Source of the DNA: Bdellovibrionales bacterium
Lineage (GTDB): Bacteria > Bdellovibrionota > Bdellovibrionia > Bdellovibrionales > UBA1609
NCBI GenBank assembly: GCA_965203935.1
Contig: OZ241921.1
Span: 1,236,276 to 1,300,275, forward strand
DNA: 64,000 nt
Reading direction: 5' to 3'
In this document: piece by piece, positions 1,634-61,860 of the stretch
How the letters are laid out: the number at the start of each line of letters is the position of its first letter
How positions within the stretch are numbered: the first letter of the stretch is position 1
Position numbers and translations under genes: made by a program
The notes under the pieces: model-generated
Told to the model about the DNA's origin: nothing
The model's database searches: none
The model's input: the letters and a program-made list of their open reading frames with translations, nothing else

Positions 1634-1697
1634 AATGTGTTTGTCCTTAAAACGACTGCTTACAAATATATAATTTACAGGGTTTTTTCACACCCCG

Positions 1698-2561
1698 CTA
1701 TTTGCTCTTTTTTTCTTCAGCCCTGCAAGCCAGTTGAAAAGTATTTTCCAAAAGCATGGCCACTGTCATAGGCCCCACCCCTCCCGGCACCGGTGTGGCG
1801 TAAGAAACATGATCTTTTAATTCTTTGAAGCGAATATCCCCTTTGAGCTTTGTTTTTCCGCCTTCTCTTACCCGATGAATGCCCACATCCACCACAACCG
1901 CCCCTTTTTTTAGATCTTTTTTTCCTAAAAGCCCCGGCCTTCCCACAGCAGACACCACAATATCCGCCTGCCGGGTGAATTGAGAAAGTTTTTTCGTGTG
2001 AGAGTGGCAAAGGCTTACTGTCGCGTTGGCTTGCAAAAATATATGAGCTGTGGGCAGGCCCACGATCCGGCTTCGTCCCACCACCACCGCATTTTTGCCC
2101 TTAAGGGAAATATTATAACTTTCAAGAAGTTTCATAATCCCCAAAGGGGTGCAGGGCTTAACTTCGGCTTGATTGCAATAAAGCAAACCTTGATTAGTCA
2201 AGGTCAGGCCATCCACATCTTTTTGAGGATCAATCCAAGAAATAACTTGTTTCCAAGGAAATTTCGAAGGCAGGGGAAGCTGAACCAGCAAGGCATGAAC
2301 AGCCGGATCTTGATTTAAACTCTGTATCGTGTTTTTAAGGTTTTCAGCTGTTTCGGGAATGGACAATAAGCGGGAATCAATGCCCACCTCTTTTGCCGAC
2401 CTAAGTTTTTGCCGGACATAGATCTTACTTGCAGGGTTGTTTCCGATCAGGATCACCCTAAGTCCCGGCCTGATTTTGTGTTTCCTGATGAAGCCCGACA
2501 CTTTTTGTTTGAGATCCGCTTTTAGTTTTTGCGCTGTTAAAAGGCCGTCCAGAATTTTCAT
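1698..2561 (-). CDS. folD: bifunctional methylenetetrahydrofolate dehydrogenase/cyclohydrolase
   Basis: FolD motifs VVGRSRIVGLP and TPVPGGVGPMTVAMLLENT. The track ORF start (2657) lies inside a repeat element. The ATG at 2561 is preceded by GGAGAG and gives a typical 287-aa protein. Confidence 0.9.
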   Translation of the reverse strand: MKILDGLLTAQKLKADLKQKVSGFIRKHKIRPGLRVILIGNNPASKIYVRQKLRSAKEVGIDSRLLSIPETAENLKNTIQSLNQDPAVHALLVQLPLPSKFPWKQVISWIDPQKDVDGLTLTNQGLLYCNQAEVKPCTPLGIMKLLESYNISLKGKNAVVVGRSRIVGLPTAHIFLQANATVSLCHSHTKKLSQFTRQADIVVSAVGRPGLLGKKDLKKGAVVVDVGIHRVREGGKTKLKGDIRFKELKDHVSYATPVPGGVGPMTVAMLLENTFQLACRAEEKKSK

Positions 2562-2589
2562 TTTTCTCTCCATCAAGACTTCGTTGTTC

Positions 2590-3225
2590 GTGAAAAAGGC
2601 TACTAAACTGCCGGTCTCAAAAGCAAAGTCCAAGCTTATTCGGGCTGGAAGTCGCACAGGCGACTTCCAGTTTTACACTTGGCTCCTCTTCGCTTGGCTT
2701 TGCTTTTGAGACATAATTTACAAGGGTTTTGCACGGGCTACTAACTATTTGCGTTTTATGCGCTGTATCAAGGTTTTGGCAAATAAAAAAATATGAAGTT
2801 TTCTCACCAAACAACACTTAAAATCAGCTAAGCAGTCAGGAGTGAAAAACCCTTGTTCTTTAGCTGTTTTTGTCCAAAGTCCGCACCGTTTCGGGCTGAA
2901 AGCCCTACGGATAGGGCTTTCAGTTTTACGAACAAACAAAAAGAAACGAAAGGCCAAATCGTTGGCCTTTCGCCTCACGGCACGGACTTTGGACAAAAAT
3001 ACTTAAGGAGGTACTTTTTCACAGGCTACTAAGTAGTCGGGCGTGAAAAAGGCTACTAAACTGCCGGTCTCAAAAGCAAAGTCCAAGTTCATTCGGGCTG
3101 GAAGCCCTACGGATAGGGCTTCCAGTTTTACACTTGGACCCTCTTCGCTTGGCTTTGCTTTTGAGACATAATTTACAAGGGTTTTGCTTATGCCACAAAT
3201 AACAAGACTTTTTCACGCCCGGCCA
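2590..3225. repeat. mosaic palindromic intergenic repeat array (three modules: 2590-2745, 2842-3022, 3043-3216)
   Basis: Each module is bounded by GTGAAAAA...TTTTTCAC and contains long inverted arms (TCTCAAAAGCAAAG.../...CTTTGCTTTTGAGA, or TTTTTGTCCAAAGTCCG.../...CGGACTTTGGACAAAAA). Inner hairpins are CTGAAAGCCCTACGGATAGGGCTTTCAG and GAAAGGCCAAATCGTTGGCCTTTC. The same modules recur at 27.2, 32.9, 38.3, 48.5 and 60.5 kb. Confidence 0.85.
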
Positions 3226-15225: not shown

Positions 15226-16170
15226 ATGAAAAAAACACTTTTAACAGGACATCACGACAGATTTTTCAAACAAGCTTATTCCGACCCTCTTATGGCCCGG
15301 GAGCTGTTTCGATTGGTCTTTTCTAAAAAGGAGTTTTCAGCTTTTGACTGGAACAGCCTAAAATCTGAAAAAGACACTTTTCAAGACAAAAGGGCTGACT
15401 TGGTTTTTTCTGTCTTACTTAACAATGCACCAGAACTGCGTTTTAAGATCTGTATCCTCTTGGAGCACAAAGCGCAATATAATCGTGATACTTTTTATCA
15501 AGCCTTAAGTTACCAGACCTTAATCATCGGGCAAACTTGGAGTCAGATGAGGGAGGCTTGGCCTGTGATCCCGGTATTGTTTTCTCACGGAAAAAAGCCT
15601 TGGAAAGGAAAAAGGTCCTTTCAGCAGGGTTTTTGGGGCAAAAGTTTTGCTAAAATTCCTGTTTCCATTGGAAAAGATATGTTAAACTATGGTGTAAGGC
15701 TTTTGGATACGCATGACCCAAAAGTGTCAGCCGTGCTGAAAGACAAAAGTTTTAAGAGCCGGGGTTTTTTGCATACTTTAAAGGAAGTGTGGAATTTAAA
15801 AGCAAATGAGGATCTGTTAAGCAAAGCTGTTTTCTTGTTTGATAATTGGCCGGGTGACAGAGACGAATTACTGTTGAGTTTGGGAGATTACTTGTGGACG
15901 GCTGTTCCCGGTATGACTGAGGACTTATGGAAGAAGGTGGAAAGCAAAGCGGTTAAAGAGGGTATATTTTCAAAAGGGGGTTATATGAACATTAAAGAAT
16001 ACATAAGAGAAGAAGGCAGGCAAGAAGGCAGACAGGCAGAACGACAGCAGGTTATTTTAAACATGCTGAAGAAATCAGCTGATTTAAGCTTTATTTCAGA
16101 AGTAACTGGCCTTTCTGTCGAAGAAATCAAAAAGCTTAAAAACGGAAAAATGACAAGAAAGAGAAAATAG
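15226..16170 (+). CDS. Rpn family recombination-promoting nuclease / putative transposase (PD-(D/E)XK, YhgA-like)
   Basis: N-terminal HHDRFFKQAYSDPLMARELF, ADLVFSV...ILLEHKAQ core and C-terminal EGRQEGRQ repeat are typical of this family. Confidence 0.8.
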   Translation: MKKTLLTGHHDRFFKQAYSDPLMARELFRLVFSKKEFSAFDWNSLKSEKDTFQDKRADLVFSVLLNNAPELRFKICILLEHKAQYNRDTFYQALSYQTLIIGQTWSQMREAWPVIPVLFSHGKKPWKGKRSFQQGFWGKSFAKIPVSIGKDMLNYGVRLLDTHDPKVSAVLKDKSFKSRGFLHTLKEVWNLKANEDLLSKAVFLFDNWPGDRDELLLSLGDYLWTAVPGMTEDLWKKVESKAVKEGIFSKGGYMNIKEYIREEGRQEGRQAERQQVILNMLKKSADLSFISEVTGLSVEEIKKLKNGKMTRKRK

Positions 16171-16175
16171 TGGCC

Positions 16176-16400
16176 GGAGGTTTAAGAACAGGCGCCGGGC
16201 TTTACGAAACATAAGTCAAAGTATTTGTGAAAAGGGGGTTCAAAAGCTCAAACATGCGTTTTGCCACACCCGCGTCTTGCAATTGCTGTGTGCTCAAAGC
16301 CGAACTCGTTTTGAACCCCCTTTTCACAAAAAAATACATGTTTCTTTAAAAAAATTATTTTACTCAAATATCGCCAAAGGCGAACTCACTTCCAGCCCTT
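16176..16400. repeat. copy of the pilin-like gene leader region, including a hairpin element with 19-bp perfect arms (16227-16327)
   Basis: Homologous to 62176-62660. Contains GTGAAAAGGGGGTTCAAAA...TTTTGAACCCCCTTTTCAC and TTACTCAAATATCGCCAAAGGCGAACTCAC. Confidence 0.75.
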
Positions 16401-16554: not shown

Positions 16555-17037
16555 TTACTTGGAATACCCCTGTTCATACATCTGAGGGCTTTTGTTGTCA
16601 AGACTGGAGTGAATCCGTCTTGTATTGTAAAAGCCTTCAATGTAGTTAAAGCATTCCTTCTTGACCTCTGTCAAACTAAGTTCTTTTGTGTTTATTCTGT
16701 TTATCAGCTCCACCTTCAAGGTTTTAAAAAAGCTTTCCATCGGAGCATTGTCTCAACAATTTCCTGTACGGCTCATGGAAGCCTTAAAACTGTACTGTTT
16801 TAACAAGCCCTGAATCTGTAAAGAGCTGTACTCAGAGCCTCTATCAGAATGAAACAACACATTCTTTGAATAGCCACGATTGTAAAGAGCTGTTACCCGC
16901 TTGTAGCCATAAGTGGGACGATCCTTTATCACGGCCCTTATGCCGGATAATACCTGCCTGTCTTTATCTTTAATCCTCATTTTTCCTCTTCTTCCTCCAC
17001 TCATCTTATAAAGAGACTTTGGATGAATCCCTATCAA
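16555..17037 (-). pseudogene. IS3-family transposase OrfB, internally deleted and frameshifted
   Basis: Two ORF pieces carry HSDRGSEYSS and ESFFKTLKVE...YNTRRIHSSL (DDE-integrase C-terminal motifs). The combined length is about half of an intact OrfB. Confidence 0.7.
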
Positions 17038-17133
17038 CTCACAAAATCTGGCTTTACAGCAGATGTTTGTGTGCTGTCTGACAAACTCCTTTGCGAACTC
17101 AGTTTTTCTTCTCTCAGCTTTTTTTTCATAAAC

Positions 17134-17421
17134 TCATTCCATTGCTTTAAAGTGGTAATATCCAGGAGCCTGATCCGCCACCGTGTGCTTTAAACGGGAG
17201 TTCTCCGTCTTTAAACGCTCTATCTCACTTAAAAGTTCTTTGGGGCATAATCCGGCTGACTTCTCCTCTGTGCTCATCTGTTCCCTCCTCCACTGATAAA
17301 TGGTGCTTGCATGAATCTGGTACTTCCGAGACAGCTCGGAAATACTGAGACCACCTTGAAAATGCTCTGAAAGTATCAGAAATCTTTGGCTTTTTGAAAC
17401 TCTTTTTGGAAACTTTTGCAC
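17134..17421 (-). CDS. IS3-family transposase OrfA (HTH)
   Basis: 95-aa ORF. LSISELSRKYQIHASTIYQWRRE helix-turn-helix plus a leucine-zipper-like LLSEIERLKTENSRLK. Confidence 0.7.
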   Translation of the reverse strand: MQKFPKRVSKSQRFLILSEHFQGGLSISELSRKYQIHASTIYQWRREQMSTEEKSAGLCPKELLSEIERLKTENSRLKHTVADQAPGYYHFKAME

Positions 17422-17818: not shown

Positions 17819-18062
17819 AACAACTCAAGATTGGTATAATTTTCTTAATACTTCCGGTGGAAGGTATAACCTTTTGGAACTTCGCAGAAAGTGTTATAAG
17901 GACATTGAGAAATGTCGCAAACGTCCCTTGCTGGTATATGCAACAAAATTTTTAGAACGCTCTCTGCCTCCAGATGCTCCCATTTTTATTGATATTGCCG
18001 ATATAGAAGGTTTTTCTGACTTAATACAATCCGTGGGGTTTACTGTGGGAAGCCTATATTTT
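17781..18062 (+). pseudogene. hypothetical gene interrupted by IS insertion
   Basis: The ORF runs into the IS1634-family element at 18063. Its last 156 bp are duplicated at 20011-20166, where the frame continues only 6 more codons. Confidence 0.45.
17907..18062. repeat. left copy of ~156-bp direct duplication flanking the IS
   Basis: By eye, identical to 20011-20166 (GAGAAATGTCGCAAACG...GGGAAGCCTATATTTT). Confidence 0.85.
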
Positions 18063-20010
18063 CCTGACTTCGACACAACACTATGAGTTAAAAAATATTT
18101 TGAGGTTTTTTTAGACCAGCCGGGTTGTTTTTGTTTGGTTTTGAGTGGTAAAATCAGTAAAAATTAAAGTTGTGTTCCCGACCCCGACCTTTACTTCCTC
18201 GATCTCTTCTGGAACAGTAAAAACATGTTTATCAAGGTCACTGAAAAAATCTCAAGCAAAAACCGAAAAATTAAATCTTTCCGGATTATGGAATCGGTAC
18301 GCAAAGGCTCAAAAACCATTCATAAAACAGTGCGCTTTGTGGGATCCTCCACGAACCCGGATATCATCAAGTCTTTGGAACAGATATCTCATAATCTGAT
18401 CGTAAAGCTCAGCAATGACCGACAGCCCGCCCTTCCCGGCATGGCCAAAATCATCTACAGCAAAGCGCCTGAGCATTTGAGCAAAAAACCAAAACAACAG
18501 AAGAAAAAACAAAAGCCTGTTTCTATCTTCTCCCTTAAAAAGCCACAGGAAACAGCACGCATCCAGCACGGCATTAAAGGAGTATGCGGGGCTGTCTATG
18601 AACAGTTAGGCTTTCATACCCTCATACAAGACACCAACAAAGATCAACAATGGAACAACATCTTAAAATACTGTGTCCTTGCCAGAGTGGCCCACCCGGA
18701 TTCCAAAAGAAAAACAGTAGACACTTTGGCAGAGGATTTTAACGAGACTGTTCCTTTGGAAAAAATGTATCGCATGATGGACAGGCTTTATCCACGCATA
18801 GAAAAAGCAAAAGACATGGCGGCCAAAAACACCCTGAGCCTGTTTAACCAAGAAGTGGATATTCTTTTCTTTGATGTCACCACCCTTTACTTTGAAAGCT
18901 TTGAAGAAGACGATACAAGACAGTTCGGCTTCAGCAAAGATAAGAAGTTCAACGAAACACAAGTGGTCTTAGCCCTTATCACCAACCAAGAAGGTCATCC
19001 CCTAAGCTATGAGCTGTTTCCCGGAAGCACGAGTGAAGGATCCACCCTTATTGCCACAGTTCAGAGATTAAAACAAAGATTTACAGTCAAAAACGCCGTG
19101 TTGGTGGCCGACAGAGCCATGTTTAATGAGCAAAACCTTACACTCATGGAGGAAGAGGGGATTCAATATGTGGTGTCCGCCAAGTTAAAGTCCCTGCCCA
19201 AAAGCAAGAAAGATGAGATTTTAGACAAAAACTTAAAATCTTCCACTGTCTCAGAAGACCCACACAGGGTAAAGATAAAAGAGCTTGAGTATAAACAAAG
19301 AAGACTCATTATAAGCCACTCAGAAAAAAGAGCCAAAAAGGATGAGGCGGACAGACTAAGACTCATTAAAAGACTGATGAAAAAAGTAAAGAACAAGCAA
19401 ATCCCCATAAAAAGCCTTATCCCCAATCATGGCACCAAAAAATACATCACAGTTCAAAAAACCAAAGCCACACTCAATGAACAAAAAATAGCTGAAGACA
19501 GCCGTTGGGACGGCCTACATGGACTTATTACCAACATGAAAGATAAGCCCCCCCAAGAACTCCTCACCCGATACAGACAGCTCTGGAAGATAGAAGAGGC
19601 TTTTCGTGTGTGCAAACACACTCTTAAGATGAGACCCATTTACCACTGGAAGAGGAAAAGAATCGAGGCTCATATTGCTATATGCTTCTTGGCTTACTCG
19701 CTTTCCTACACCATGAAACACAGAATGGAGCAAAGAAAGCTCAACTTCAGCATAAAGAAAATGAGAGAGATTTTAAAAAGAGATCAATACAGTATTATAG
19801 AGGATGCAAATAAAAATCTCTATCGTATGCCCTCTAAATCCACAGAACCGATACAGGCTATATACGAGGCTTTGGGGCTTAAAAGAGTGTCTGACTTTGT
19901 ATCCGGTTCCTGAAGTTTTACCGGACTTCAGTCTTAAAATGTGTGCCCCCGTAAAAACTCATAAGTATATGATATCACTCACTTAATGCCTTGCATTGTG
20001 TCGAAGTCGG
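18063..20010 (+). mobile_element. IS1634-family (IS4-like) insertion sequence, ~1.95 kb
   Basis: Terminal inverted repeats CCTGACTTCGACACAA (18063-) and TTGTGTCGAAGTCGG(G) (-20010), one 562-aa DDE transposase, flanked by a long direct duplication. Confidence 0.8.
18225..19913 (+). CDS. IS1634-family DDE transposase
   Basis: 562-aa ORF. N-terminus MFIKVTEKISSKNRKIKSFRIMESVRKGSKTIHKTVRFVG and the C-terminal YRQLWKIEEAFRVCK motif are typical of IS4/IS1634 transposases. Confidence 0.8.
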   Translation: MFIKVTEKISSKNRKIKSFRIMESVRKGSKTIHKTVRFVGSSTNPDIIKSLEQISHNLIVKLSNDRQPALPGMAKIIYSKAPEHLSKKPKQQKKKQKPVSIFSLKKPQETARIQHGIKGVCGAVYEQLGFHTLIQDTNKDQQWNNILKYCVLARVAHPDSKRKTVDTLAEDFNETVPLEKMYRMMDRLYPRIEKAKDMAAKNTLSLFNQEVDILFFDVTTLYFESFEEDDTRQFGFSKDKKFNETQVVLALITNQEGHPLSYELFPGSTSEGSTLIATVQRLKQRFTVKNAVLVADRAMFNEQNLTLMEEEGIQYVVSAKLKSLPKSKKDEILDKNLKSSTVSEDPHRVKIKELEYKQRRLIISHSEKRAKKDEADRLRLIKRLMKKVKNKQIPIKSLIPNHGTKKYITVQKTKATLNEQKIAEDSRWDGLHGLITNMKDKPPQELLTRYRQLWKIEEAFRVCKHTLKMRPIYHWKRKRIEAHIAICFLAYSLSYTMKHRMEQRKLNFSIKKMREILKRDQYSIIEDANKNLYRMPSKSTEPIQAIYEALGLKRVSDFVSGS

Positions 20011-20166
20011 GAGAAATGTCGCAAACGTCCCTTGCTGGTATATGCAACAAAATTTTTAGAACGCTCTCTGCCTCCAGATGCTCCCATTTTTATTGATATT
20101 GCCGATATAGAAGGTTTTTCTGACTTAATACAATCCGTGGGGTTTACTGTGGGAAGCCTATATTTT
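20011..20166. repeat. right copy of ~156-bp direct duplication flanking the IS
   Basis: By eye, identical to 17907-18062. Confidence 0.85.
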
Positions 20167-27187: not shown

Positions 27188-27239
27188 AAGCGTTTTGAAA
27201 CAAGTTTGTTGCGACGGCACTCTGATTCTCCATATTATT

Positions 27240-27645
27240 TTGTGAAAAGGGGGTTCAAAACGAGTTCGGCGGTTTAGCAACCTTTTTCATGCCGGACTAA
27301 TTAGTCCCCCGTGAAAAACCCTTGTTATTTGTGGCATAAGCAAAAGCCTCGCCGGTGAGAGTCCAAGGTATTCCGTCTCGAACAAGGCGGGGTTTTGCTT
27401 ATGCCAACTATGAAAACCAACCTTTTTCACGCCCCACTAATTATTAGCCTGTGAAAAAGTATCCCCTTAAGCATTTTTGTCCAAAGTCCGTGCCGTGAGG
27501 CGAAAGGCCAACAATTTGGCCTTTCGTTTCTTTTTGTTTGTTCGTAAAACTGAAAGCCCTATCCGTAGGGCTTTCAGCCCGAAACGGTGCGGACTTTGGA
27601 CAAAAACAGCTAAAGAACAAAGGTTTTTCACGGGCGGATAATTAT
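27240..27645. repeat. mosaic palindromic intergenic repeat array (four modules)
   Basis: Partial GTGAAAAGGGGGTTCAAAA module, a GCTTATGCCA-type module (27321-27441) and a TTTTTGTCCAAAGTCCG-type module (27451-27631). The last is the reverse complement of 2842-3022. Confidence 0.85.
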
Positions 27646-32879: not shown

Positions 32880-33030
32880 CTGACTAAATAATGGGGCGTG
32901 AAAAAGGCTATTAAACTGCTGATCTGCAAGCAAAGTCCAAGCTTGTTCAGGACGGAATACCTTGGACCTTCACCGCTTGGCTTTGCTTGCAGACATAATT
33001 TAAAGGGGTTTTTCACAGCCCACTAAATAA
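32880..33030. repeat. single palindromic repeat module (variant arms)
   Basis: GTGAAAAAGGCTATTAAACTGC...TCTGCAAGCAAAGTCCAAG / CTTGGCTTTGCTTGCAGA...TTTTTCAC. Both arms carry the same variant relative to other copies. Confidence 0.85.
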
Positions 33031-34231: not shown

Positions 34232-34284
34232 GCTAAAACAATATACCTCTTCACAAAGCGCTAAATAGTCGGGCGTGATAAACC

Positions 34285-34312
34285 TTGCAAGAATCGGAAA
34301 TTGTGTGATAAA
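34285..34312 (+). promoter_or_regulatory. candidate sigma70-type promoter of module A (TTGCAA-16 nt-TGtGATAAA)
   Basis: The same sequence is conserved at 34976-35003 (+) and 38210-38237 (-) in front of all three paralogues. The -10 lies only ~10 nt from the ATG. Confidence 0.3.
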
Positions 34313-34321
34313 GTGATGTTT

Positions 34322-34774
34322 ATGAAAAATTTTACTTTTTTTATCAGTTTTTTGATACTTTATGGCCTTCCTCCGGCAAAGGCTCAAAGTAATGATATAT
34401 CAACCGGCGAAGAGGCACAAAATAAAAATAAGCGATCCTCCTACGCCAAAAATTATCTACGACCGGGGGGCATTTTTCCATTGGCGTTGGAGTTTCATAA
34501 ATGGCCTGATAAAGAGGAAAAAGAGACTATTCTGCGGTACACAAAAGAAAAAGGCCTGCGAAAAGTAAGAGAGGTTGCCTTTAACAAAGTCTGGGCTTTT
34601 GAATGGGTGGAAGAACCAGAAAAAAAACCAAAAACTATCTCCTCCTCCTTTACAGCTACAAAAATCTGTATGGAATTTCCAAAACTTAAATCCGTAAAAC
34701 ACTGTATTGCAGATTCGTTGCTCTTTCCTCCACTTTCTCCCGGAGAGTTGAATCTCGATCTTTACCCACAATAA
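34322..34774 (+). CDS. small secreted protein, paralogue A of a triplicated family
   Basis: Signal peptide MKNFTFFISFLILYGLPPAKA|Q and conserved core WPDKEEKETILRYTKEKGL...ICMEFPKLKSVKHC. Paralogues at 35013-35474 and 37733-38200. Confidence 0.6.
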   Translation: MKNFTFFISFLILYGLPPAKAQSNDISTGEEAQNKNKRSSYAKNYLRPGGIFPLALEFHKWPDKEEKETILRYTKEKGLRKVREVAFNKVWAFEWVEEPEKKPKTISSSFTATKICMEFPKLKSVKHCIADSLLFPPLSPGELNLDLYPQ

Positions 34775-34780
34775 AGATAT

Positions 34781-34972
34781 ATGAAAAAACAAAGCCCGGC
34801 CTGTTTTTTGGTGTTCCTGCTTTATATCTTTAATCCCTCGGATGCTTTGTCTCAAAATAAGACAATAAACAAAACAATCGGTTCTTTTTCACAATTCATC
34901 CCTGAAAGCTCTCTTAAAAAAAATAAAACCGTATTGCCGGAAACAGATCAAAAGCAACATTTTCTTAAATAA
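34781..34972 (+). pseudogene. truncated copy of the S8 protease 5' end (leader only, 63 codons)
   Basis: MKKQSPACFLVFLLYIFNPSDALSQNKTINKT.GSFSQFIPESS matches the first ~45 aa of the 681-aa protein, then diverges and stops. Confidence 0.6.
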
Positions 34973-35012
34973 AACTTGCAAGAATCGGAAATTGTGTGAT
35001 AAAGTGATGTTT

Positions 35013-35474
35013 ATGAAAAATTTTACTTTTTTTATCAGTTTTTTGATACTTTATGGCCTTCCTCCGGCAAAGGCTCAAAATAATGATATATCAACCGGCA
35101 AAGAGGCACAAAATGAGCGACTCGCTGCCCATATTAAACAGTACTATCAGGCGGCGGGCATTATATTGGAGTTTTATAAATGGCCTGATAAAGAAGAAAA
35201 AGATGTTATTTTGCAGTACACAAAAGAAAACGGCCTGAAAAAGGCAAGAACAATTACCTTTTACAAAGGCTGGTCTTTTGACTGGGTGGAAGAGCCAAAA
35301 TTACCAAAAAACCCAAAAACACTGAACGATCTCTTCTCCGCCTCCTCTTTTATAGCTACAAAAATCTGTATGGAATTTCCAAAACTTAACTCCGTAAAAG
35401 ACTGTGTTGCAAATGCGTTGATCTTTCCCCCGCTTATTCCCGGAGAATTGAGCCCCGGTGTTTACCCAAAATAA
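35013..35474 (+). CDS. small secreted protein, paralogue B
   Basis: Same signal peptide and core as paralogues A and C. Immediately upstream of the full-length S8-like protease. Confidence 0.6.
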   Translation: MKNFTFFISFLILYGLPPAKAQNNDISTGKEAQNERLAAHIKQYYQAAGIILEFYKWPDKEEKDVILQYTKENGLKKARTITFYKGWSFDWVEEPKLPKNPKTLNDLFSASSFIATKICMEFPKLNSVKDCVANALIFPPLIPGELSPGVYPK

Positions 35475-35480
35475 AGATAT

Positions 35481-37526
35481 ATGAAAAAACAAAGGCCGGT
35501 CTGCTTTTTTGTGTTTCTGCTTTATATCTTTAATCCCTCGGATGCTTTGTCTCAAAATAAGACAATAAACAAAACAGCCGGTTCTTTTTCACAGTTCATC
35601 CCTGAAAGCTCTTTTAAAAAAAATAAAACAGAAAAAACCTTAAATCCTTGTAGTGATATTCCCCATTCCCGTTTAAAGGTACAAGCTTATAACCCTTCCA
35701 AAAAGAGGTATGAGGAAAGCAGTCATGCAACAAAAACTCTATCCACTTATTGGGCGCAAAATATGATAGGGGCGGATCTTTTAAAACAGGAATTAAAAAA
35801 AACAAAACCCCATAAAAAAAATCTTGTCGCTGTATTTGATTTTTTCCCTCCCTATGTTGCTGACAGTCACGGTATTGCAGTTAAAAATCTTATATCCGGT
35901 AAGGGGGATCAAGCCGTATTGCCGGAAGCGGGACATCATGTAAGAAAGGTTGAACTGCACTCAACAGATGTTTTTCCCGATTTTTATAAAGAGATCGAAA
36001 GAAAATGCGGCAATCAGCATCTTCATCATTCCGAAAACTTTAGAAAATGCAAAAATAAAATCCTGCCTTCTTTTGTTAATCATTCAATGACTATAGGCGC
36101 TGTCGGCTTTTGGGAGATGGGCTACGGGACAAAAAAAGAATGGGACAGATGGATAGCTGATAATGACTTGAATAACCCGAAACTAAACAGCACACTTTTA
36201 CGATACTTGAAAAACAAAGGCGTACTTCCTCCGAAAAACGGCAAATTATCTAAAGCGGACATTAAATATTTTCTGGGCCAAATGCAGAAAGTACCAATCT
36301 CACAGGAAAAAAGATTTAAGTACTTTAGAAAATTAGCCTTCGATAAAGTTATTTTTATGAATATCGGGGGAAATTTTGTTAATGAGCCTGTTGCTGAAAT
36401 AGCAACCCGTGCTTCAAAAGACTTTAATGTTATTTTAGTGGGCAGTTTGGACCCAAATGGCAGAAGAAGCGCCTTTTCGCAAGAGGGTGAGCAGGTGCAT
36501 ATTATGGCGCCCTCCGGGACGGATATTCATTCGGCTGACAAAAACGGAAAGCTTGTAAGATTTAGAGGTACCAGTGGAGCCGCGCCTTTGGTTACAGCCT
36601 CCCTGGCGGGCTTTGAGTGGATGTCGGGTTACCACCCCACGGCGGAAGAGGCTAAAATTCTTTTAGAAAAAACCGCTGTCCCTCATTTATACTCAAACGA
36701 TACACCTCGTAAAAATGGTGTGGGAATGGTAAATGCCTACAAATTGGGGATAGTGGGAAAAGAGTTAAAAGAAATCTGCAAAAAGGACCAAGCCTGTTTC
36801 AAACGGATGATCCGAATGAACGCCACCTACGATACTGTGTCGTCCGGGGATACCAACTTAATGGAGGATTTAAAACGCACCTTTCCTGAATGTAGTAAAT
36901 CTTCTTGCACACAGTCTTCCGAAGCTTCCTGCTTGGAAAAGGCAAAGCTTTTTAACAGATTAAGAAAGGCTGTTTTTCTTCAGCCCAAAGACAGAAAACT
37001 TTGGAGGTATATGTCTTGTATTTACAGCTCCAATCAGAATCTGAAAGAGGAAAGCGAAGGCGCTTTTAACATATATAGGGCTTTGGCGAAGGGATACATC
37101 AGCACGCAAACAAATGTTTCCTGCAAAGATTACACAGATTGTGTTTTATCCCCTGTATGCCCGGCCGGGCCTGCCGGACCTGCCGGGCCAGCCGGACCAG
37201 CCGGACCTGCTTTGTTTGTTCCTCTGAATAAAGATGGGGCTGAAGCTCATTACATTGACTGCATTCGCCGGAACAGAAAAATCCCTTTTTGTAAAGATCA
37301 ATGCCGGTGTAAGGATCAAGAAGAAGTGCGGGGGACATACACAAAAGACAAAAAGCCGGTTGAGGCGATAAGGCGCTATAAAACCAAGTGTAAGAGCTTT
37401 CAATGTGTTATGGATATGGAGGAGAAACAAGTCCCGGAAAAGCAAGAGAGTGTTCAGCCACCCCAGCCAAAAAGAAAAACCATCCCTCCGGCAAAACCTT
37501 TAGAAGGCTCACGGGCCATACAATAA
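35481..37526 (+). CDS. secreted subtilisin-like (S8) serine protease with Cys-rich C-terminal region
   Basis: Signal peptide. Asp/His/Ser motifs LVAVFDFF, DSHGIAVKNLISG and RGTSGAAPLVTASLAG. (PAG)5 collagen-like run and a Cys-rich tail. The Asp-His spacing is unusually short. Confidence 0.6.
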   Translation: MKKQRPVCFFVFLLYIFNPSDALSQNKTINKTAGSFSQFIPESSFKKNKTEKTLNPCSDIPHSRLKVQAYNPSKKRYEESSHATKTLSTYWAQNMIGADLLKQELKKTKPHKKNLVAVFDFFPPYVADSHGIAVKNLISGKGDQAVLPEAGHHVRKVELHSTDVFPDFYKEIERKCGNQHLHHSENFRKCKNKILPSFVNHSMTIGAVGFWEMGYGTKKEWDRWIADNDLNNPKLNSTLLRYLKNKGVLPPKNGKLSKADIKYFLGQMQKVPISQEKRFKYFRKLAFDKVIFMNIGGNFVNEPVAEIATRASKDFNVILVGSLDPNGRRSAFSQEGEQVHIMAPSGTDIHSADKNGKLVRFRGTSGAAPLVTASLAGFEWMSGYHPTAEEAKILLEKTAVPHLYSNDTPRKNGVGMVNAYKLGIVGKELKEICKKDQACFKRMIRMNATYDTVSSGDTNLMEDLKRTFPECSKSSCTQSSEASCLEKAKLFNRLRKAVFLQPKDRKLWRYMSCIYSSNQNLKEESEGAFNIYRALAKGYISTQTNVSCKDYTDCVLSPVCPAGPAGPAGPAGPAGPALFVPLNKDGAEAHYIDCIRRNRKIPFCKDQCRCKDQEEVRGTYTKDKKPVEAIRRYKTKCKSFQCVMDMEEKQVPEKQESVQPPQPKRKTIPPAKPLEGSRAIQ

Positions 37527-37549: not shown

Positions 37550-37726
37550 TTATGATGTTTCTTTTTCCGGCAATACGGTTTTATTTGTTTGAAAAGAGCT
37601 TTCAGGGATGAACTGTGAAAAAGAACCGGCTGTTTTGTTTATTGTCTTATTTTGAGACAAAGCCTCCGAGGAATTAAAAACATAAAGCAGGAATACCAAA
37701 AAACAAGCCAACCTTTGTTTTTTCAT
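37550..37726 (-). pseudogene. truncated inverted copy of the S8 protease 5' end (58 codons)
   Basis: Read on the minus strand: MKKQRLACFLVFLLYVFNSSEALSQNKTINKTAGSFSQFIPESSF..., stopping soon after. Convergent with the full-length gene. Confidence 0.55.
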
Positions 37727-37732
37727 ATATCT

Positions 37733-38200
37733 TTATTGTGGATAAACTTCGGGGGCTAACATGTCCTCTCCGGGAGGAAGCGGGGGAAAGATCAACGAAT
37801 TTGCAATACAGTGTTTTACGGAGTTAAGTTTTGGAAATTCCATACAGATTCTTGTAGCTATAAAAGAGGAGGCGGAGAAGAGATCGTTCAGTGTTTTTGG
37901 GTTTTTTGGTAATTTTGGCTCTTCCACCCAGTCAAAAGACCAGCCTTTGTAAAAAGTAATTGTTCTTGCCTTTTTCAGGCCGTTTTCTTTTGTATACCGC
38001 AGAATAGTCTCTTTTTCCTCTTTATCAGGCCATTTATGAAACTCCAATATAATGCCCGCCGCCTGATAGTACTGTTTGATATAGGTGGCGAGTCGCTCAT
38101 TTTGTGCCTCTTCGCCGGTTGATATATCATTACTTTGAGCCTTTGCCGGAGGAAGGCCATAAAGTATCAAAAAACTGATAAAAAAAGTAAAATTTTTCAT
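37733..38200 (-). CDS. small secreted protein, paralogue C (inverted)
   Basis: About 90 percent nucleotide identity by eye to paralogue B, with patches that match paralogue A (EKETILRY, VKHCIA). Confidence 0.6.
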   Translation of the reverse strand: MKNFTFFISFLILYGLPPAKAQSNDISTGEEAQNERLATYIKQYYQAAGIILEFHKWPDKEEKETILRYTKENGLKKARTITFYKGWSFDWVEEPKLPKNPKTLNDLFSASSFIATRICMEFPKLNSVKHCIANSLIFPPLPPGEDMLAPEVYPQ

Positions 38201-38240
38201 AAATGTCACTTTATCACACAATTTCCGATTTTTGCAAGTT

Positions 38241-38568
38241 TTATCACGCCCGACTATTTAGTAGCCCGTGAAAAACCCTTGGGCTTTAGCTGTTTTTGTC
38301 CAAAGTCCGCACCGTTTCGTGACGGAATACGATTTAACACTCACGGCACGGACTTTGGACAAAAATGCTTAAGGGGGGCACTTGTTCACGGGCGATTATT
38401 TAGTAGCCCGTGAAAAACACCTGTAAATTATGTCTCAAAAGCAAAGCCAAGCGGTGACGGGCGTATAGGCCAACGATTTGGCCTTCCGTTTCGTCCCGAA
38501 CAAGCCGGGGTTTTGTATGTGAGACTTACTAAATTCAGACTTTTTCACGAGCTACTATTTAGCGCTTT
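38241..38568. repeat. mosaic palindromic intergenic repeat array (two modules)
   Basis: A TTTTTGTCCAAAGTCCG-type module (38269-38385) and a degenerate TCTCAAAAGCAAAG-type module, with the junction TTATTTAGTAGCCCGTGAAAAA. Confidence 0.8.
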
Positions 38569-38579
38569 GTGAAGAAGTA

Positions 38580-39474: not shown

Positions 39475-40543
39475 CAAAAACACGCGGTCTTCCGCAGAAA
39501 AAAATCCTAAGAAAGAAAAATCAGAGTCAGGTAAAAAGCCTTCTGAGCTGAAAGCCAAAAAAGCTGAGCTTAAAAAAGCTTCTGATCTAAAAGCCAAATC
39601 AGAGCCGGTTAAAAAGCCTGAGCAAAAAGCTGTTGCGAAAGCTGAAGGTAAAAAGGCTTCAGAACAAAAAGCCAAATTAGATCCGGTTAAAAAGCCTTCG
39701 AGTAAAAAGCCTGAGCAAAAAGCTGTTGCGAAAGCTGAAGGTAAAAAGGCTTCAGAACAAAAAGCCAAATCAGAGCCGGTCAAAAAACCTTCGAGTAAAA
39801 AGCCTGAGCAAAAAGCTGTTGCGAAAGCTGAGGTTAAAAAGCCTTCTGAGCCAACAGCCAAAAAAGATCCGGTCAAAAAGCCTTCCGAACAAAAAGCCAA
39901 AGAAGAAATTAAACTAAACGGCCTTTACGCCTTTAAATTGGCTATGTCCTCTCTTTATACAGAAAAAGGACAGGTTGTGCCGGTCACTTTTTTAAAGTTC
40001 AAGCCTTGGCTTGTGTCTCAAATCAAGAGAAAAGAAAAAGAAGGATATAACTCAGTTCAGCTGGCCTGTGTGCCTGCGAAAAACAAAACCTGCTCAAAAG
40101 CGGTGAAAAATCATTTGTCCCCGGCGGGTCTTTCAGGAAAGTCGCTTTTTATAAGAGAAATTAGGCAAAAATCGGTGGACAATATAAAAGTGGGGCAGGC
40201 TCTTTCTATTCATTCTCTTCAAAAAGGGGACAGGGTGAAGTTGCAGGCTGTTTCTAAGGGGCATGGTTTTACGGGCGTGGTAAAAAGATGGGGTTTTAAA
40301 GGAGGCCCCGCCTCTCACGGATCTAAAACACACAGGACAGGAGGCTCCATCGGCAACCGCACAGAGCCTGCCCGGGTCATGCCGGGCAAAAAAATGGCAG
40401 GCCGTTACGGAGTGGAAAAAACCAGCCTGAAAAATGTACAGGTCATAGATGTTATTTCAAGCGAAAACATGATCGTGGTAAAAGGGCCTGTGCCCGGGGC
40501 CGGAAACGGCCTTGTGCTTTTATCCAAAATGGAGAAAAGGTAA
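39467..40543 (+). CDS. rplC: 50S ribosomal protein L3 with ~155-aa Lys/Ala/Glu-rich N-terminal extension
   Basis: The L3 core starts near [24 protein letters not shown] and includes [20 protein letters not shown]. It is preceded by [22 protein letters not shown] repeats. The ATG at 39467 overlaps the rpsJ stop. Confidence 0.9.
39611..39889. repeat. 93-bp tandem repeat x3 inside the rplC 5' extension
   Basis: AAAAAGCCTGAGCAAAAAGCTGTTGCGAAAGCTGA... recurs at 39611, 39704 and 39797 (period 93 = 31 codons). Confidence 0.85.
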
Positions 40544-48269: not shown

Positions 48270-48451
48270 ACCGGCAGGTGACAGTGACTTTGAAAAAAAG
48301 CTTAATAGGCTGTACAAAAAAGCAAAAATCAGCTGTGCGCTGTTTGGGCTTGAAAAAGCCCGGCCAAAAAATCGTTTTGCCTGAAAACCCCGTAACAAAA
48401 GGACAGATGGAAAAAGTAAAACATTTAATCACACTGGAGTACAATAAATAG
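48266..48451 (+). CDS. rpmD: 50S ribosomal protein L30
   Basis: 61-aa [30 protein letters not shown]. Confidence 0.9.
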
Positions 48452-48650
48452 TCGGGCGTGAAAAAGGCTACTAAACTGCATGGTCTCAAAAGCAAAGTCC
48501 AAGCTTGTTCAGGCTGAAAGCCCTACGGATAGGGCTTTCAGTTTTACGAAAAAACAAAGAAGAACGGAAGGCCAAATCGTTGGCCTATACGCCTTCACCG
48601 CTTGGTTTTGCTTTTGAGACATAATTTACAGGTGTTTTTCACGGGCTACT
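48447..48650. repeat. palindromic repeat module inserted between rpmD and rplO
   Basis: AAATAGTCGGGCGTGAAAAAGGCTACTAAACTGC...TCTCAAAAGCAAAG...CTGAAAGCCCTACGGATAGGGCTTTCAG...GGCCAAATCGTTGGCC...TTGCTTTTGAGA...TTTTTCACGGGCTACT. Its left flank overlaps the rpmD stop codon. Confidence 0.85.
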
Positions 48651-51087: not shown

Positions 51088-52779
51088 TTGCCGGCTTTTC
51101 TGTCGTCACCCCCCCCCCCCCCCCATTCCAAAAAATCCAGTAATTTCAATAGTTTACATACATTTCTTCATCTAAAAACTTCAGCCGGCAAAGCCTGTTA
51201 TTTCGCCGCGGGTCTTTCCCGGTTAAAAAGCTGTGTTTGTTTTATAAAGTCACGAGTACGACAACAAAGTCGCGTCGCTATCGCCGGCATTGCCGGTTTC
51301 GGGCTGGTGGAGGTTTTGGTTTTGGCCGGCTTGGGGCTGGTGGTGTCTTTGGGAAGTTTAAAGCTGGCTCAGGTGGAGTCTCGATCCGCTTTGATTATGA
51401 AAGCAGGGCTGGCGGAGCGGGATTTAAGCTATACTCTAAAATCTGTCTTAAGCGAAGATTGCAAATGGAACTTAAAGCCCGGCAGAACCGGCGGGCTTGC
51501 CTCAGACGGCACGGGCGCTTTAAGCGCGCTTAAAAAAACTTACGGCAACAACGAAGGCGAATCACCAAATATAAACGATGACATTAGCTTAATCACCACG
51601 GGCGATTTTAAAAACGCTTTAGACATCATAAAGATGGAGTTTAAAGATCCTAATGCAGGAAATACCGACACAGATGAAAGGTCTTTTTTTGTTTACTACA
51701 AGAAAAAAGGGCTTGGGAGTGTAAGCACGGTGGGAAACAGGACCTGCACAAATGGCACGGGGGCTGAGGATCAAGCAGGCTGTTATCTTATAAAATGCGA
51801 TATGCAGTATTCTCTTCATAAAACAACAGGTAATGACAAGTGTTCCCTCTCAGGTTGTGTGACAGGGGCGGGACATGCAGACAAAGCGGGCCTTATCTGT
51901 GAGGAGGGTAAATATTTACAAGGCATTGACGATCAAGGGAACAAAATTTGTAAGCAGACAGCTCAATCAGGGGAGGGTTGTCCTTCCGGGAAATTTCTTA
52001 AAGGTTTTAAAAGTGACGGCACCGCCGAGTGTGAAACACCCTGCCCGGAAGGCAGGGTATGGAAAAATAACAGTTGCGAATGCCCGGGGAATCAAAGTTG
52101 GAACGGCTCCGCCTGTGCGTGCCCTGTGGATAAGCTTAAGTGGACCGGCACGGCTTGCGAGGCCTGCCCTTCGGATAAACCCAACTGGAACGGCTCTGAT
52201 TGTGTACCGGCCTGCACAAGTGGTACTCCGAAGTGGGATGGCTCAAGCTGTATAACATGTGTAGCTTATAACAGCAATACCCCCAAGTGGAACAGCAGTA
52301 CAAAGAGCTGTGAGGCCTGCCCAAGTGGTACTCCGAAGTGGAATGGTTCAAGCTGTATAACATGTGTGGCTTATAACAGCAATACCCCCCAGTGGAACAG
52401 CAGTACAAAGAGCTGTGAGGCGGCCTGCCCAAGTGGTGCTGATTTGTCCAATGGACATTGCTGTCCTATTGGAAGAGTATATTCCCACGGGGTTTGTTGT
52501 CGCAATGGGTATGTGCGTGTGGGGATATATACCTGTTGCCCAAATGACCGACCATACATGTATTCACAACAGACTGGTTGCTATAGAGAATGCGCGGGCA
52601 CGATTGTAAGAAGATCCTTCGCCGGATATATATGTGCCTGCCCCGACAGTAAGCCCCACTTCTATCACAGCCAATGCAATGTCTGTGGCCCCCTTGAGCA
52701 GTTGTCCAATGGACATTGCTGTCCTTGGGGGTATGTGTATTCCCACGAGTACGAGCGATGTGGGGCTTTTGACTTTTGA
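51088..52779 (+). CDS. pilin-like cysteine-rich repeat surface protein, paralogue 1 (start uncertain, possibly phase-off)
   Basis: Track ORF (TTG start) contains IAG|FGLVEVLVLAGLGLVVSLGSL (prepilin-type Gly / F-x-L-x-E with Glu+5 plus hydrophobic helix), a conserved head (DCKWNLKPGRTGGL.SDGTGALSALKKT) and CxxC/PKW(N/D)GS repeats. SD+ATG at 51063 is out of frame across the C16 tract. Confidence 0.65.
   Translation: MPAFLSSPPPPPHSKKSSNFNSLHTFLHLKTSAGKACYFAAGLSRLKSCVCFIKSRVRQQSRVAIAGIAGFGLVEVLVLAGLGLVVSLGSLKLAQVESRSALIMKAGLAERDLSYTLKSVLSEDCKWNLKPGRTGGLASDGTGALSALKKTYGNNEGESPNINDDISLITTGDFKNALDIIKMEFKDPNAGNTDTDERSFFVYYKKKGLGSVSTVGNRTCTNGTGAEDQAGCYLIKCDMQYSLHKTTGNDKCSLSGCVTGAGHADKAGLICEEGKYLQGIDDQGNKICKQTAQSGEGCPSGKFLKGFKSDGTAECETPCPEGRVWKNNSCECPGNQSWNGSACACPVDKLKWTGTACEACPSDKPNWNGSDCVPACTSGTPKWDGSSCITCVAYNSNTPKWNSSTKSCEACPSGTPKWNGSSCITCVAYNSNTPQWNSSTKSCEAACPSGADLSNGHCCPIGRVYSHGVCCRNGYVRVGIYTCCPNDRPYMYSQQTGCYRECAGTIVRRSFAGYICACPDSKPHFYHSQCNVCGPLEQLSNGHCCPWGYVYSHEYERCGAFDF
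51109..51124 (+). repeat. homopolymeric poly-C tract, 16 nt
   Basis: Counted directly. Followed by ATTCCAAAAAATCCAGTAATTTCAATA, a flank shared with the tract at 62072. Confidence 0.95.
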
Positions 52780-52839: not shown

Positions 52840-53715
52840 ATGATTTTTTTACAAAAATTGGTTTTAGGAAGAGCGGGTTTTGGATTGGTGGAGATTTTAA
52901 TTACCGCCGGGGCGGGGCTTGTTCTGGGGGCGGGTATGTTGACTTTGTTTCAAAATTCTTTGCAAAACTCTTCAGCTCTTAAGGTTTTAGCTGTGGAGCG
53001 GGACTTAAGCTCCCGCTTAAGAGAGATCTTAAATAATCCCGCTGACTGCAAGTGGAACTTAACACCGGGCCGAACCGGCGGGCTTTCATCAGACGGCACA
53101 GGCGCTTTAAGCGCGCTTAAAAAAACTAATGGCAGTACAAATCCTTCAGATTATAAACCTGCGATCGAAAAAGGCGTATTTAAAGGCAAACTGGAGGTGG
53201 TAAAGCTGGAGTTTTCGGGAAGCGCCAATGAAAGAACTTTTACAGTGTATTACAAAAGAAAAGGCTTAAAAGTTTACAATACTTTAGGGGGCGGGGCTTG
53301 TGCCACAGGCGACACAAGCGGGTGTTACTTTGAATCCTGCAAAGTGAATTATACTTATTCAGGAACAACAGTTAACACCTGCGCTTTGCTTAATTGCGCG
53401 GTGGATGAAGTCATAAAAAGCGTAAGTAAAAAAACCTGCGGACAGCATCAAAACTTAAGAGGCTTTGACAAAAACGGTGAGCCTGTTTGTAAGCCGGTGG
53501 CTCAAGCGGGAGATATTTGCCCTGCGGGACAGTTCTTAAAACATTTTGACGGCAAGGGCAAAGCGGTTTGTGAAACAGCCTGCTCCGCCGGTGCGACATG
53601 GAAGGGATCTTCCTGTGTCTGCTTGGGCGGCAGAATATGGAACGGTTCCACCTGCACCTGTCTGCACGGCAAGTATTGGGATGGATCAAAATGCGTGGCT
53701 GATTCCTCCACTTAA
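52840..53715 (+). CDS. pilin-like cysteine-rich protein, paralogue 2 (short classical leader)
   Basis: MIFLQKLVLGRAG|FGLVEILITAGAGLVLGAG, a short basic leader ending in Gly. Same conserved head as paralogues 1 and 3, with a short Cys-rich tail. Confidence 0.7.
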   Translation: MIFLQKLVLGRAGFGLVEILITAGAGLVLGAGMLTLFQNSLQNSSALKVLAVERDLSSRLREILNNPADCKWNLTPGRTGGLSSDGTGALSALKKTNGSTNPSDYKPAIEKGVFKGKLEVVKLEFSGSANERTFTVYYKRKGLKVYNTLGGGACATGDTSGCYFESCKVNYTYSGTTVNTCALLNCAVDEVIKSVSKKTCGQHQNLRGFDKNGEPVCKPVAQAGDICPAGQFLKHFDGKGKAVCETACSAGATWKGSSCVCLGGRIWNGSTCTCLHGKYWDGSKCVADSST

Positions 53716-53716
53716 T

Positions 53717-60520: not shown

Positions 60521-60670
60521 CTAAGTAGTAGTCCGTGAAAAACCCTTTTAAATTATGTCTCAAAAGCAAAGCCAAGCGGTGAGGGTCCAAGGTATTCCGT
60601 CCCGAACAAGCTTGGACTTTGCTTTTGAGACCAGCAGTTTAGTGGCCTTTTTCACGCCCCACTAAGTATT
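60521..60670. repeat. palindromic repeat module (inverted orientation)
   Basis: CTAAGTAGTAGTCCGTGAAAAA...TCTCAAAAGCAAAGCCAAG...CTTGGACTTTGCTTTTGAGA...TTTTTCACGCCCCACTAAGTA. It overlaps the last codons of the AAA ATPase gene. Confidence 0.85.
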
Positions 60671-61860
60671 TGATGATTCCATAACCGGCGCAAAAACTCC
60701 GACCAGTGAAGGCAGTGGATATTATCTTGTAAAATATTATCCGGGTCACAGGTGACCAGAAAAAATTGTTTAAATATTTGTTCCTCTCTAAGAGCTTTTA
60801 AGCCCCGCAGATGTTTTGGTGAAGCTCTTTGTGTGGATTTAATTGCAAGGGCTGTATCCTCTCCTATGGTCAGATCCACTTCCTGCCGGTTGGTTGATTG
60901 CCAGTACCCCATTTTTTTAAAAATCCGGTGGTAATGCAAATAAGCGCGTATTTCATGAATAATCCAATGTTCAAAACTTTTTCCAAAAAGAGAGGAATGG
61001 GGGCTTAAGCTTTTTGTTTCTATAAGAGAATGAAGAACTCCCGGATCAAAAAAATAAAACTTGGCTTTGGAAATAGCTTTTCTTTTTTTCGACTTTATCC
61101 AAGGTTCCAGAAAGAAACCCAAAAAAGTTTCCTCCAAAATGGAGTAATATTCCCTTACCGTGCTGGGGGCGATGCCATAATCACCGCCTAATTTTGTAAA
61201 GTTTAAAATATCGCCACTGCAAAGTGCGGAGGCTTCCAAAAATCTGGAGAACTGGGGTATTTTTTTTACCAAAGCCTCCGCTTGAATTTCCTCTTTCAGG
61301 TAGTTGCTTCTGTAGGCGATCAGCTCTTCTTCAGGATCGGGGCTTAAATGCACGAAAGGCAGACCCCCATAAAGCAAATACCGGTTTAAATTAAAATTCC
61401 TTGGGCCTATTTCATGGAAAGTCAGAGGGTACAGATAAGCGCTCCAAGCTCTGCCTGCCAACAGGTTGGCGCCTCCTCGTTTAAGTTTTCTGGAAGAGCT
61501 TCCAGTCAGTAAAAACTTCCAACTTCTTTTTTCAATTAAACGATGCACTTCATCTAAAATTGAGGGGAGCTTTTGCACTTCATCAATAACAACCAGAATA
61601 TCTTTTGAGTTTATTTTTTGCTCCCGGATTTTTTCTTCTACACTGTTTTCCATAAAGGCCTGGGACACAGACAAGCGGTGGAAAATTCTGTGTTTTAACA
61701 GATCAAACAAAAAGACTTTTTTTGCCTTCCCGCCGGACATTAAGCTCTGCATAATGAGGTGACTTTTGCCTACAGCCCTTGGGCCAAACAGGAAAAAGGA
61801 CTTTTTTTTCAAGAGCGCGGGTAAATCAAGGGCTCTTTTTATGTTTTTTTGTTTTTTCAT
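60652..61860 (-). CDS. AAA-family ATP-binding protein (AAA_14/DUF4143-like)
   Basis: 402-aa ORF. Walker A GPRAVGKSH, Walker B VVIDEVQ and a C-terminal region typical of DUF4143 ATPases. Confidence 0.7.
   Translation of the reverse strand: MKKQKNIKRALDLPALLKKKSFFLFGPRAVGKSHLIMQSLMSGGKAKKVFLFDLLKHRIFHRLSVSQAFMENSVEEKIREQKINSKDILVVIDEVQKLPSILDEVHRLIEKRSWKFLLTGSSSRKLKRGGANLLAGRAWSAYLYPLTFHEIGPRNFNLNRYLLYGGLPFVHLSPDPEEELIAYRSNYLKEEIQAEALVKKIPQFSRFLEASALCSGDILNFTKLGGDYGIAPSTVREYYSILEETFLGFFLEPWIKSKKRKAISKAKFYFFDPGVLHSLIETKSLSPHSSLFGKSFEHWIIHEIRAYLHYHRIFKKMGYWQSTNRQEVDLTIGEDTALAIKSTQRASPKHLRGLKALREEQIFKQFFLVTCDPDNILQDNIHCLHWSEFLRRLWNHQILSGA

Follow-up and report, generated by a model that had tools for sequence, protein, structure and literature searches.

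The window, a 64,000-nucleotide stretch of a 2.03 Mb Bdellovibrionales genome, has a G+C content of 39-52% and carries housekeeping genes that include gcv genes, folD, nusA-infB, pheST, and the S10/spc ribosomal-protein operons. It also holds ten complete palindromic elements of 131 to 199 bp at six loci, together with about six solo ends (Table 1). The elements are bounded by GTGAAAAA...TTTTTCAC, and their arms and inner hairpins are swappable. One array, at 2.6-3.2 kb, occupies the divergent promoter region of folD and an aldehyde dehydrogenase gene, while another, at 27.3-27.6 kb, lies directly upstream of pheS. The pair of elements at 38.26-38.56 kb is placed 3 nt downstream of tRNA-Arg(CCG).

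A preliminary description of this DNA had reported a dispersed, mosaic family of palindromic intergenic repeats at six loci, occurring in arrays and in both orientations. We found all six loci, repeat finding on both strands linked them to each other (2842-3052 and 27421-27631, for example, are 96% identical over 211 nt), and our catalogue bore out the arrays and the two orientations. The A-arm motif GTCTCAAAAGCAAAG(N)CCAAG occurred 8 times with 0 expected, and GTGAAAAA occurred 34 times with 9.8 expected. Each module folded into one long hairpin, with z values of -4.4 to -10.8 against dinucleotide shuffles. In the Rfam check that had been proposed, the sole match at the gathering threshold was a tRNA, and the E-value mode returned chance sub-threshold matches, e.g., a plant miRNA precursor at 27 bits versus 200. 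Taken together, the presence of the loci, the motif excess, the folding, and the lack of any Rfam match but a tRNA indicate that the observation is real and nonrandom.

Table 1. Elements, solo ends, and AAA_14/DUF4143 genes. Complete elements, probably MITEs, have names beginning with W_; positions are those of the window unless an L number, denoting a related locus, is given.
Feature	Position	Strand	Structure	Flanks and surroundings
Solo end	1660..1698	-	ATAATTTACAGGGTTTTTTCAC + tip ACCCC GC	Between gcvT and folD
W_A1	2583..2741	+	A arms, private inner hairpin; degenerate left tip	GACTTC/TAACTA, mismatched; 16 nt upstream of folD ribosome-binding site
W_B1	2835..3029	+	B arms, core with hp1 + hp2; hp2 terminator-like on minus strand	TAAGCA/TAAGTA
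Shared 6-bp target duplication	3030..3035	.	TAAGTA	Middle of the 20-bp "junction" described earlier
W_A2C	3036..3223	+	Chimera: A arms with hp1, then C-type right end	
Solo end	27271..27297	-	ATGAAAAAGG..., tip GCCGG AC	Abuts half copy of second palindromic family (27233-27270)
W_C1	27304..27437	-	C arms, short core	Perfect TAATTA duplication
W_B1r	27444..27638	-	Inverted copy of W_B1, 96% identical	Perfect TAATTA duplication
W_A3	32891..33023	+		TAAATA at 32885-32890 and 33024-33029
Junction remnant	34247..34282	.	Right-end stub (CTCTTCAC AAAGC GC) + TAAATA + left end (GT CGGGC GTGATAAA)	Start of protease module copy 1
Solo end	38237..38254	-	GTGATAAAACTTGC..., tip GCCCG AC	Closes inverted protease-module copy
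W_B2	38261..38396	+	B arms, short variant core	Perfect TATTTA duplication
W_A4	38403..38555	-	One A arm + one divergent arm, core with hp2	Perfect TATTTA duplication
Solo-end stub	38562-38576			After W_A4; 3 nt from 3' end of tRNA-Arg(CCG)
W_A5	48451..48649	+	A arms, core with hp1 + hp2	Between rpmD and rplO; first nucleotide completes rpmD stop codon
W_A6	60528..60662	-	A arms, short core	Perfect TAAGTA duplication; tip provides last codons and stop of AAA_14/DUF4143 gene
AAA_14/DUF4143 gene	60652-61860			
AAA_14/DUF4143 gene	L013:7513-8937			
AAA_14/DUF4143 gene	L013:20473-21657			
AAA_14/DUF4143 gene	L014:19150-19560			
AAA_14/DUF4143 gene	L018:11792-12958			
AAA_14/DUF4143 gene	L021:15123-16262			

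Other repeats and mobile elements in the window

The window contains further repeats and mobile elements. On either side of an IS1634-family insertion sequence at 18063-20010 (NF033559, 366 bits) stands a perfect direct repeat of 156 bp (17907-18062 and 20011-20166), which looks like a target duplication of exceptional length. L014 contains an identical IS1634-family element, situated between duplicate copies of a 400-aa gene plus BPL_LplA_LipB gene. We rejected the IS1634-family element of the window as the mobilizer of the palindromic elements because its ends (CTGACTTCGACACAA) are unrelated to theirs. A decayed IS3-family element, consisting of an HTH_Tnp_1 open reading frame (ORF) and rve fragments, occupies 16555-17421 on the minus strand.

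A second palindromic repeat family, with the terminal inverted repeat TGTGAAAAGGGGGTTCAAAA, is found at 16218-16330, 62229-62414, and 27233-27270. The last of these overlaps the locus given earlier as 27240-27645 and is not part of the element family described here. The interior of the second family (AGCTCAAA..CATGCGTTTTGCCACA..CTCAAAGCCGAACTCGTTTTGAAC) is conserved, without the terminal inverted repeat, in a distant relative (L007:1888-1963). Its first copy in the window abuts an Rpn/YhgA-like (Transposase_31) gene at 15226-16170. That gene was also rejected as a candidate mobilizer, since it abuts only the second family.

A module of about 700 bp is present three times, at 34262-34960, at 34969-35650, and inverted at 37560-38261; its coding content is a small protein that looks secreted and the beginning of an S8 protease gene. 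A solo MITE/insertion sequence end opens the module, and solo ends flank the triplication. The junction-like sequence noticed earlier beside these protease modules (34247-34282 and 38237-38267) is real and represents solo element ends. Inverted 25-nt copies that contain an end, TAC(C/T)TCTTCACAAAGCGCTAAATAGT, at 34244 and 38578 bracket the 34.24-38.58 kb segment. This arrangement suggests that the elements mediated a duplication or inversion.

Several genes of the window contain repeats of their own. The ribosomal protein L3 gene (39440-40543) is unusually long, at 358 to 367 aa, with tandem repeats at 39532-39888 that are 93 bp long and Lys/Ala-rich. Another conserved sequence, of about 98 bp, recurs at 51108-51281, 53739-53874, and 62726-63102; it lies before several large genes that lack a Pfam match, or at their start, and includes four 93-bp tandem copies at 62743-63098. 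In related loci, neighboring genes carry a weak N_methyl (prepilin) domain annotation. The 979-aa ORF at 53546-56485, likewise without a Pfam match, has tandem repeats of 135 to 147 bp at 55912-56473 and 54883-55317. An intergenic homopolymer run of about 20 C residues at 62073-62092 may be a slippage-prone tract or an assembly artifact. AAA_14/DUF4143 ATPase genes are very frequent in these genomes and often lie close to mobile elements.

Ends, target duplications, and interior of the elements

The anatomy of the family was read from 24 complete copies, placed in one orientation, from the window and related loci. Outside GTGAAAAA and TTTTTCAC there were always 7 more nucleotides, GT (or AT) followed by five mostly G/C bases. 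The termini named in the preliminary description thus hold as inner bounds, but the elements reach 7 nt further on each side, and the size of 120 to 185 bp given there becomes 131 to 199 bp. The terminal inverted repeat is 15 nt long, GT-NSSSC-GTGAAAAA, and was present at both ends of the 24 copies, with imperfect inversion in its 5-nt G/C stretch.

Outside each tip lies a 6-mer of the form TANNTA, a directly duplicated target. The two 6-mers were identical in 15 of the 24 copies, compared to 10% of mismatched left/right pairs (permutation P < 1e-4). One further copy had a 7-bp duplication, and the flanking repeats were imperfect in 9 of the 24. The 6-mers, including nonpalindromic ones, are repeated directly rather than inverted (TAAATA/TAAATA, TAAGTA/TAAGTA, and GAGATA/GAGATA). 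We also considered a 10-bp duplication, ACTAWWTAGT, and rejected it; full-length insertion sequence copies (see below) place GT and AC inside the element, so only the inner 6 bp are duplicated.

These tips and directly repeated 6-mers explain the conserved 20-bp "junction" reported earlier, which consists of the right tip of one element, a single shared target duplication, and the left tip of the next, as in AGGCT-AC-TAAGTA-GT-CGGGC at 3023-3042. Degenerate versions of the junction do recur, but the exact string is present just twice, and the junction is not a separate module.

Inside the ends, short subterminal stretches are followed by complementary arms of 17 to 23 nt, of which there are at least six versions, and by a core at the center, GCTTGTTC(R)GGACGGAATACCTTGGAC(NN)TCACCGC. 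This core of about 40 nt is conserved in most copies. The inner hairpins had been described as interchangeable. Two of them, hp1 (GCTGAAAGCCCTACGGATAGGGCTTTCAGC then TTTTAC) and hp2 (GAAAGGCCAAATCGTTGGCCTTTC), are indeed optional inserts into the core, but GGAATACCTTGGAC is part of the core itself and not an interchangeable hairpin. In B-type copies, the core is inverted relative to the ends. Chimeric copies, with arms of two types, are found at 3036-3223 in the window, at L017:240-356, and at L013:5721-5866. The coding capacity of the elements is limited to short, frame-dependent ORFs, and a concatenated six-frame query of the repeat-encoded peptides had no match among 5.8 billion proteins.

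Insertions seen against related genomes

The locus L017 (ENA ERZ26050464) is syntenic with 20.7-34.2 kb of the window at about 82% nucleotide identity. At L017:11443-11480, it has an empty site, GGATGGAC-TAAATA-TTTTTTTAAGTAAAC, with a single TAAATA and no element. The window counterpart reads TAAATA-[133 bp element 32891-33023]-TAAATA-ATTTTTTAAGTAAAC. In the other direction, two genes that overlap each other in the window are separated in L017 by a B-type copy. The spacer between purL and pheS is 54 bp in L017 versus 1.8 kb in the window, where it contains two ORFs and the 27.3-27.6 kb array. In the more distant L006 and L007, whose PheS is 79 to 81% identical, 85 bp of spacer precede pheS, and 42 kb of these two loci yielded no copy of the family. 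In the near-identical strain L023, the 2.6-3.2 kb array showed no polymorphism.

At least three related metagenomic genomes, all ENA long-read assemblies, contain the family, with the sites differing between them. Copies of the family are dispersed over unlinked contigs, namely, L013 and L014 of ERZ25070167 and L017 of ERZ26050464. Given this spread over unlinked contigs and other genomes, the family is not a local duplication, which the preliminary description had named as an alternative. A 20-mer from the A arm gave four chance matches and no family member in the GTDB representatives (one genome per species) and five chance matches and no true one in the JGI metagenomes. In 74 kb of the window's own genome, there are ten complete copies and about seven solo ends; a very rough extrapolation from these approximately 74 kb would put about 100 or more copies in 2 Mb.

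A full-length IS5-family insertion sequence with the same ends

Related genomes contain a 1.55 kb IS5-family insertion sequence that encodes a DDE transposase of 444 to 445 aa. In L017, the transposase has the Pfam domains DUF772 and DDE_Tnp_1 and scored 459 bits with NCBIfam NF033578, against a cutoff of 275. The left boundary of this insertion sequence is TAAGTA-GT-AGCCC-GTGAAAAAGG... and the right boundary is ...TTTATCAC-GGGCG-AC-TAAGTA. The stop codon of the transposase gene lies inside the left arm of the right-end hairpin, and the hairpin core shows 100% identity, over 40 nt, with that of the element at 60528-60662 in the window. Overall, cores of the small elements matched the L017 right-end hairpin at 93 to 100% over 28 to 48 nt.

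Homologue searches and look-ups yielded four more full-length copies of about 1.55 kb each, in L018, L019, L020, and L021, with the same tips as that of L017. Their duplications were perfect in three cases (TAACTA, GAGATA, and TATTTA) and matched at 4 of 6 positions in the other (TAATTA/TATATA). The copy in L020 splits an MjaV-like gene. The hairpin core is shared with the small elements by the insertion sequences of L017, L020, and L021, while L018 and L019 have a different right-end structure. A covariance model of the hairpin matched the small elements in the window, L013, L014, and L017 as well as the insertion sequence right ends in L017, L020, and L021. L013 and L014, which have many copies of the small elements along with transposase remnants, come from the same sample as L021 (ERZ25070167). 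The nearest annotated plasmid relatives of the transposase are Leptospira genes labeled "IS5 family transposase," with 44 to 47% identity.

The best 120 clusters of transposase homologues do not include the 2.03 Mb contig on which the window lies, and tblastn with the transposase found no remnant within the window. With no intact transposase found for this genome, current mobility there is unproven; the copies may be orphans, or they may be moved by an insertion sequence copy elsewhere in the genome.

The preliminary description had likened the repeats to the REP/BIME mosaics of Escherichia coli and had proposed a RAYT-like partner. On this reading, they would belong with REP/BIME-like elements (REPINs), and a RAYT-type HUH (Y1) transposase that works on single-stranded hairpins would have spread them. 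REPs, which need a RAYT HUH transposase, are 20 to 40 nt long and have neither terminal inverted repeats nor a target duplication. The elements studied here do resemble E. coli REP/BIME and REPINs in being intergenic palindromes in mosaic clusters, in having hairpin arms that covary through paired changes, as reported for REPINs, and in carrying GTAG/CTAC tetranucleotides near the tips. However, the units are 131 to 199 bp long and have terminal inverted repeats, 6-bp target duplications, and an empty site in a relative. Their ends and hairpin core recur in a DDE insertion sequence of the IS5 family, and no Y1 transposase domain appeared in the gene tables and Pfam scans of about 330 kb (window plus related loci). 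We therefore regard the REP/BIME assignment as extremely unlikely; the repeat family was correctly noticed but misassigned.

The same observations bear on site-specific recombination at the 20-bp junction, in the manner of Xer/dif modules, invertase sites, or integron attC sites. The junction, SSSSN-AC-TANNTA-GT-NSSSS, is roughly palindromic and common to arrays of modules, and the types differ in which way the core faces with respect to the ends; these points favor recombination. Yet single elements are flanked by direct duplications of locus-specific 6-mers, and the full-length partner has a gene for a DDE transposase but none for a recombinase. The empty site, which consists of the 6-mer only and has no recombination site, contradicts this scheme along with its attC version, and we give it next to no weight.

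Covariation of the hairpin arms

Pairing in the hairpins is strongly maintained. Across 17 hairpins, 95.4% of cells pair, versus 69.8% in shuffles and 28 to 52% when the partners are slid. Changes on both sides were seen in 20 of 27 pairs, including a 3-bp helix inside the core. The arm pairs comprised 306 Watson-Crick pairs, 2 G-U pairs, and 12 mismatches, and the arm versions differ by multinucleotide changes that include indels. A near-perfect hairpin was present in all copies, which simple decay of an insertion sequence does not account for.

Such double changes, together with the very stable folds, could also mark structured noncoding RNA genes or cis-regulatory RNAs (terminators, mRNA stabilizers, or small RNAs) whose sequence is kept for RNA function. 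In line with this, hp2 followed by its T-run scored as terminator-like on one strand, and one copy lies inside the rpmD-rplO operon. Against it, arms that are almost solely Watson-Crick paired are unusual for selection at the RNA level, copies stand in both orientations relative to adjoining genes, insertions are polymorphic between relatives, and no Rfam family matched. We consider RNA function improbable as the explanation of the family, although a secondary, exapted RNA role of individual copies is possible.

The near absence of G-U pairs and the multinucleotide arm differences with indels instead argue for a constraint on complementarity at the DNA level. A possible cause is that the structure is needed for transposition. 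Another possible cause, by analogy with the templated copying reported in hairpins (PMC8794818), is templated copying between the arms during replication.

DISCUSSION

Bacterial MITEs, such as Correia/CREE of Neisseria, ERIC, RUP, Nezha, and bcr1 of Bacillus cereus, have been reviewed (PMC3184786). Like these, the elements of the window are small (about 100 to 200 bp) and noncoding, with terminal inverted repeats, target-site duplications, and a long stem-loop, and they have many intergenic copies whose locations differ between related genomes (PMC3184786). Consisting of both insertion sequence ends and the right-end hairpin but no gene, they fit the MITE definition of that review, and the compensatory changes have counterparts in bcr1 and ERIC (PMC3184786). 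Several features set them apart. Correia, ERIC, and RUP duplicate TA, whereas the duplication here is 6 bp at TANNTA. Unlike the MITEs listed above, these elements have the ends GT-NSSSC-GTGAAAAA, several arm subfamilies with one 40-nt core, and frequent head-to-tail or head-to-head arrays in which neighbors have one duplicated target in common, and their host is an uncultured Bdellovibrionales-like lineage. We found no reports of MITEs for such a lineage in the literature.

The parent resembles the IS5 family in its DUF772 and DDE_Tnp_1 transposase, which scored above the curated cutoff, in its terminal inverted repeats, and in short duplications of a target site that is A/T-rich and partly palindromic. 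For named IS5 subgroups, the usual duplication is 2 to 4, 8, or 9 bp, and 6 bp is not typical. The long subterminal hairpin that overlaps the transposase stop codon also distinguishes the parent from the IS5 family, as the missing transposase does the window elements.

Ends, duplications, the empty site, the shared insertion sequence, and dispersal across genomes were all observed directly. Because the small elements have the same tips, the same 6-bp duplication, and the same hairpin as the insertion sequence, we believe, with a probability of roughly 0.9, that they are MITEs cut down from an IS5-family insertion sequence. An uncultured Bdellovibrionales-like clade would thus harbor a new MITE family together with its IS5-family parent. 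In our model, each element would have lost the gene and kept the terminal inverted repeats of the insertion sequence (5'-GT-NSSSC-GTGAAAAA...), short subterminal stretches, and the right-end hairpin that overlaps the stop codon in the full insertion sequence, with its variable complementary arms around the conserved core (GCTTGTTCGGGACGGAATACCTTGGACCCTCACCGC). The DDE transposase, presumably acting in trans, would insert the elements at TANNTA-like sites and duplicate 6 bp. The duplicated target would serve well for further insertion, so that new copies would land beside old ones and build arrays whose junctions read tip, TANNTA, tip. Mosaicism could then come from recombination between copies, giving chimeric arms, from a core flipped within its inverted arms, which the B type exemplifies, and from small hairpins gained inside the core.

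Copies in promoter regions, beside a tRNA, and in a ribosomal-protein operon, two of which supply stop codons, are candidates for effects on the expression of neighboring genes.

It is also conceivable, if rather unlikely, that the right-end hairpin is an obligatory cis-acting DNA structure of this IS5 subgroup. The transposase or a host factor may bind it as a cruciform or single-strand hairpin, or it may be the template of a transposon-encoded regulatory RNA. A cis-acting role would explain why each MITE subfamily retained the hairpin, why the arms change solely in Watson-Crick-matched blocks, and why the 40-nt core is, in the copies compared, 93 to 100% identical between the insertion sequence in one genome and MITEs in another. 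A strictly Watson-Crick covarying hairpin with an invariant core, common to the insertion sequence and all MITE subfamilies, goes beyond the routine and could reveal how this IS5 subgroup recognizes or regulates its ends. The MITE/IS5 pair, with exact boundaries, target, and parent, is useful for annotation, for assembling and strain-typing these predators, and for the reading of local rearrangements in their genomes.
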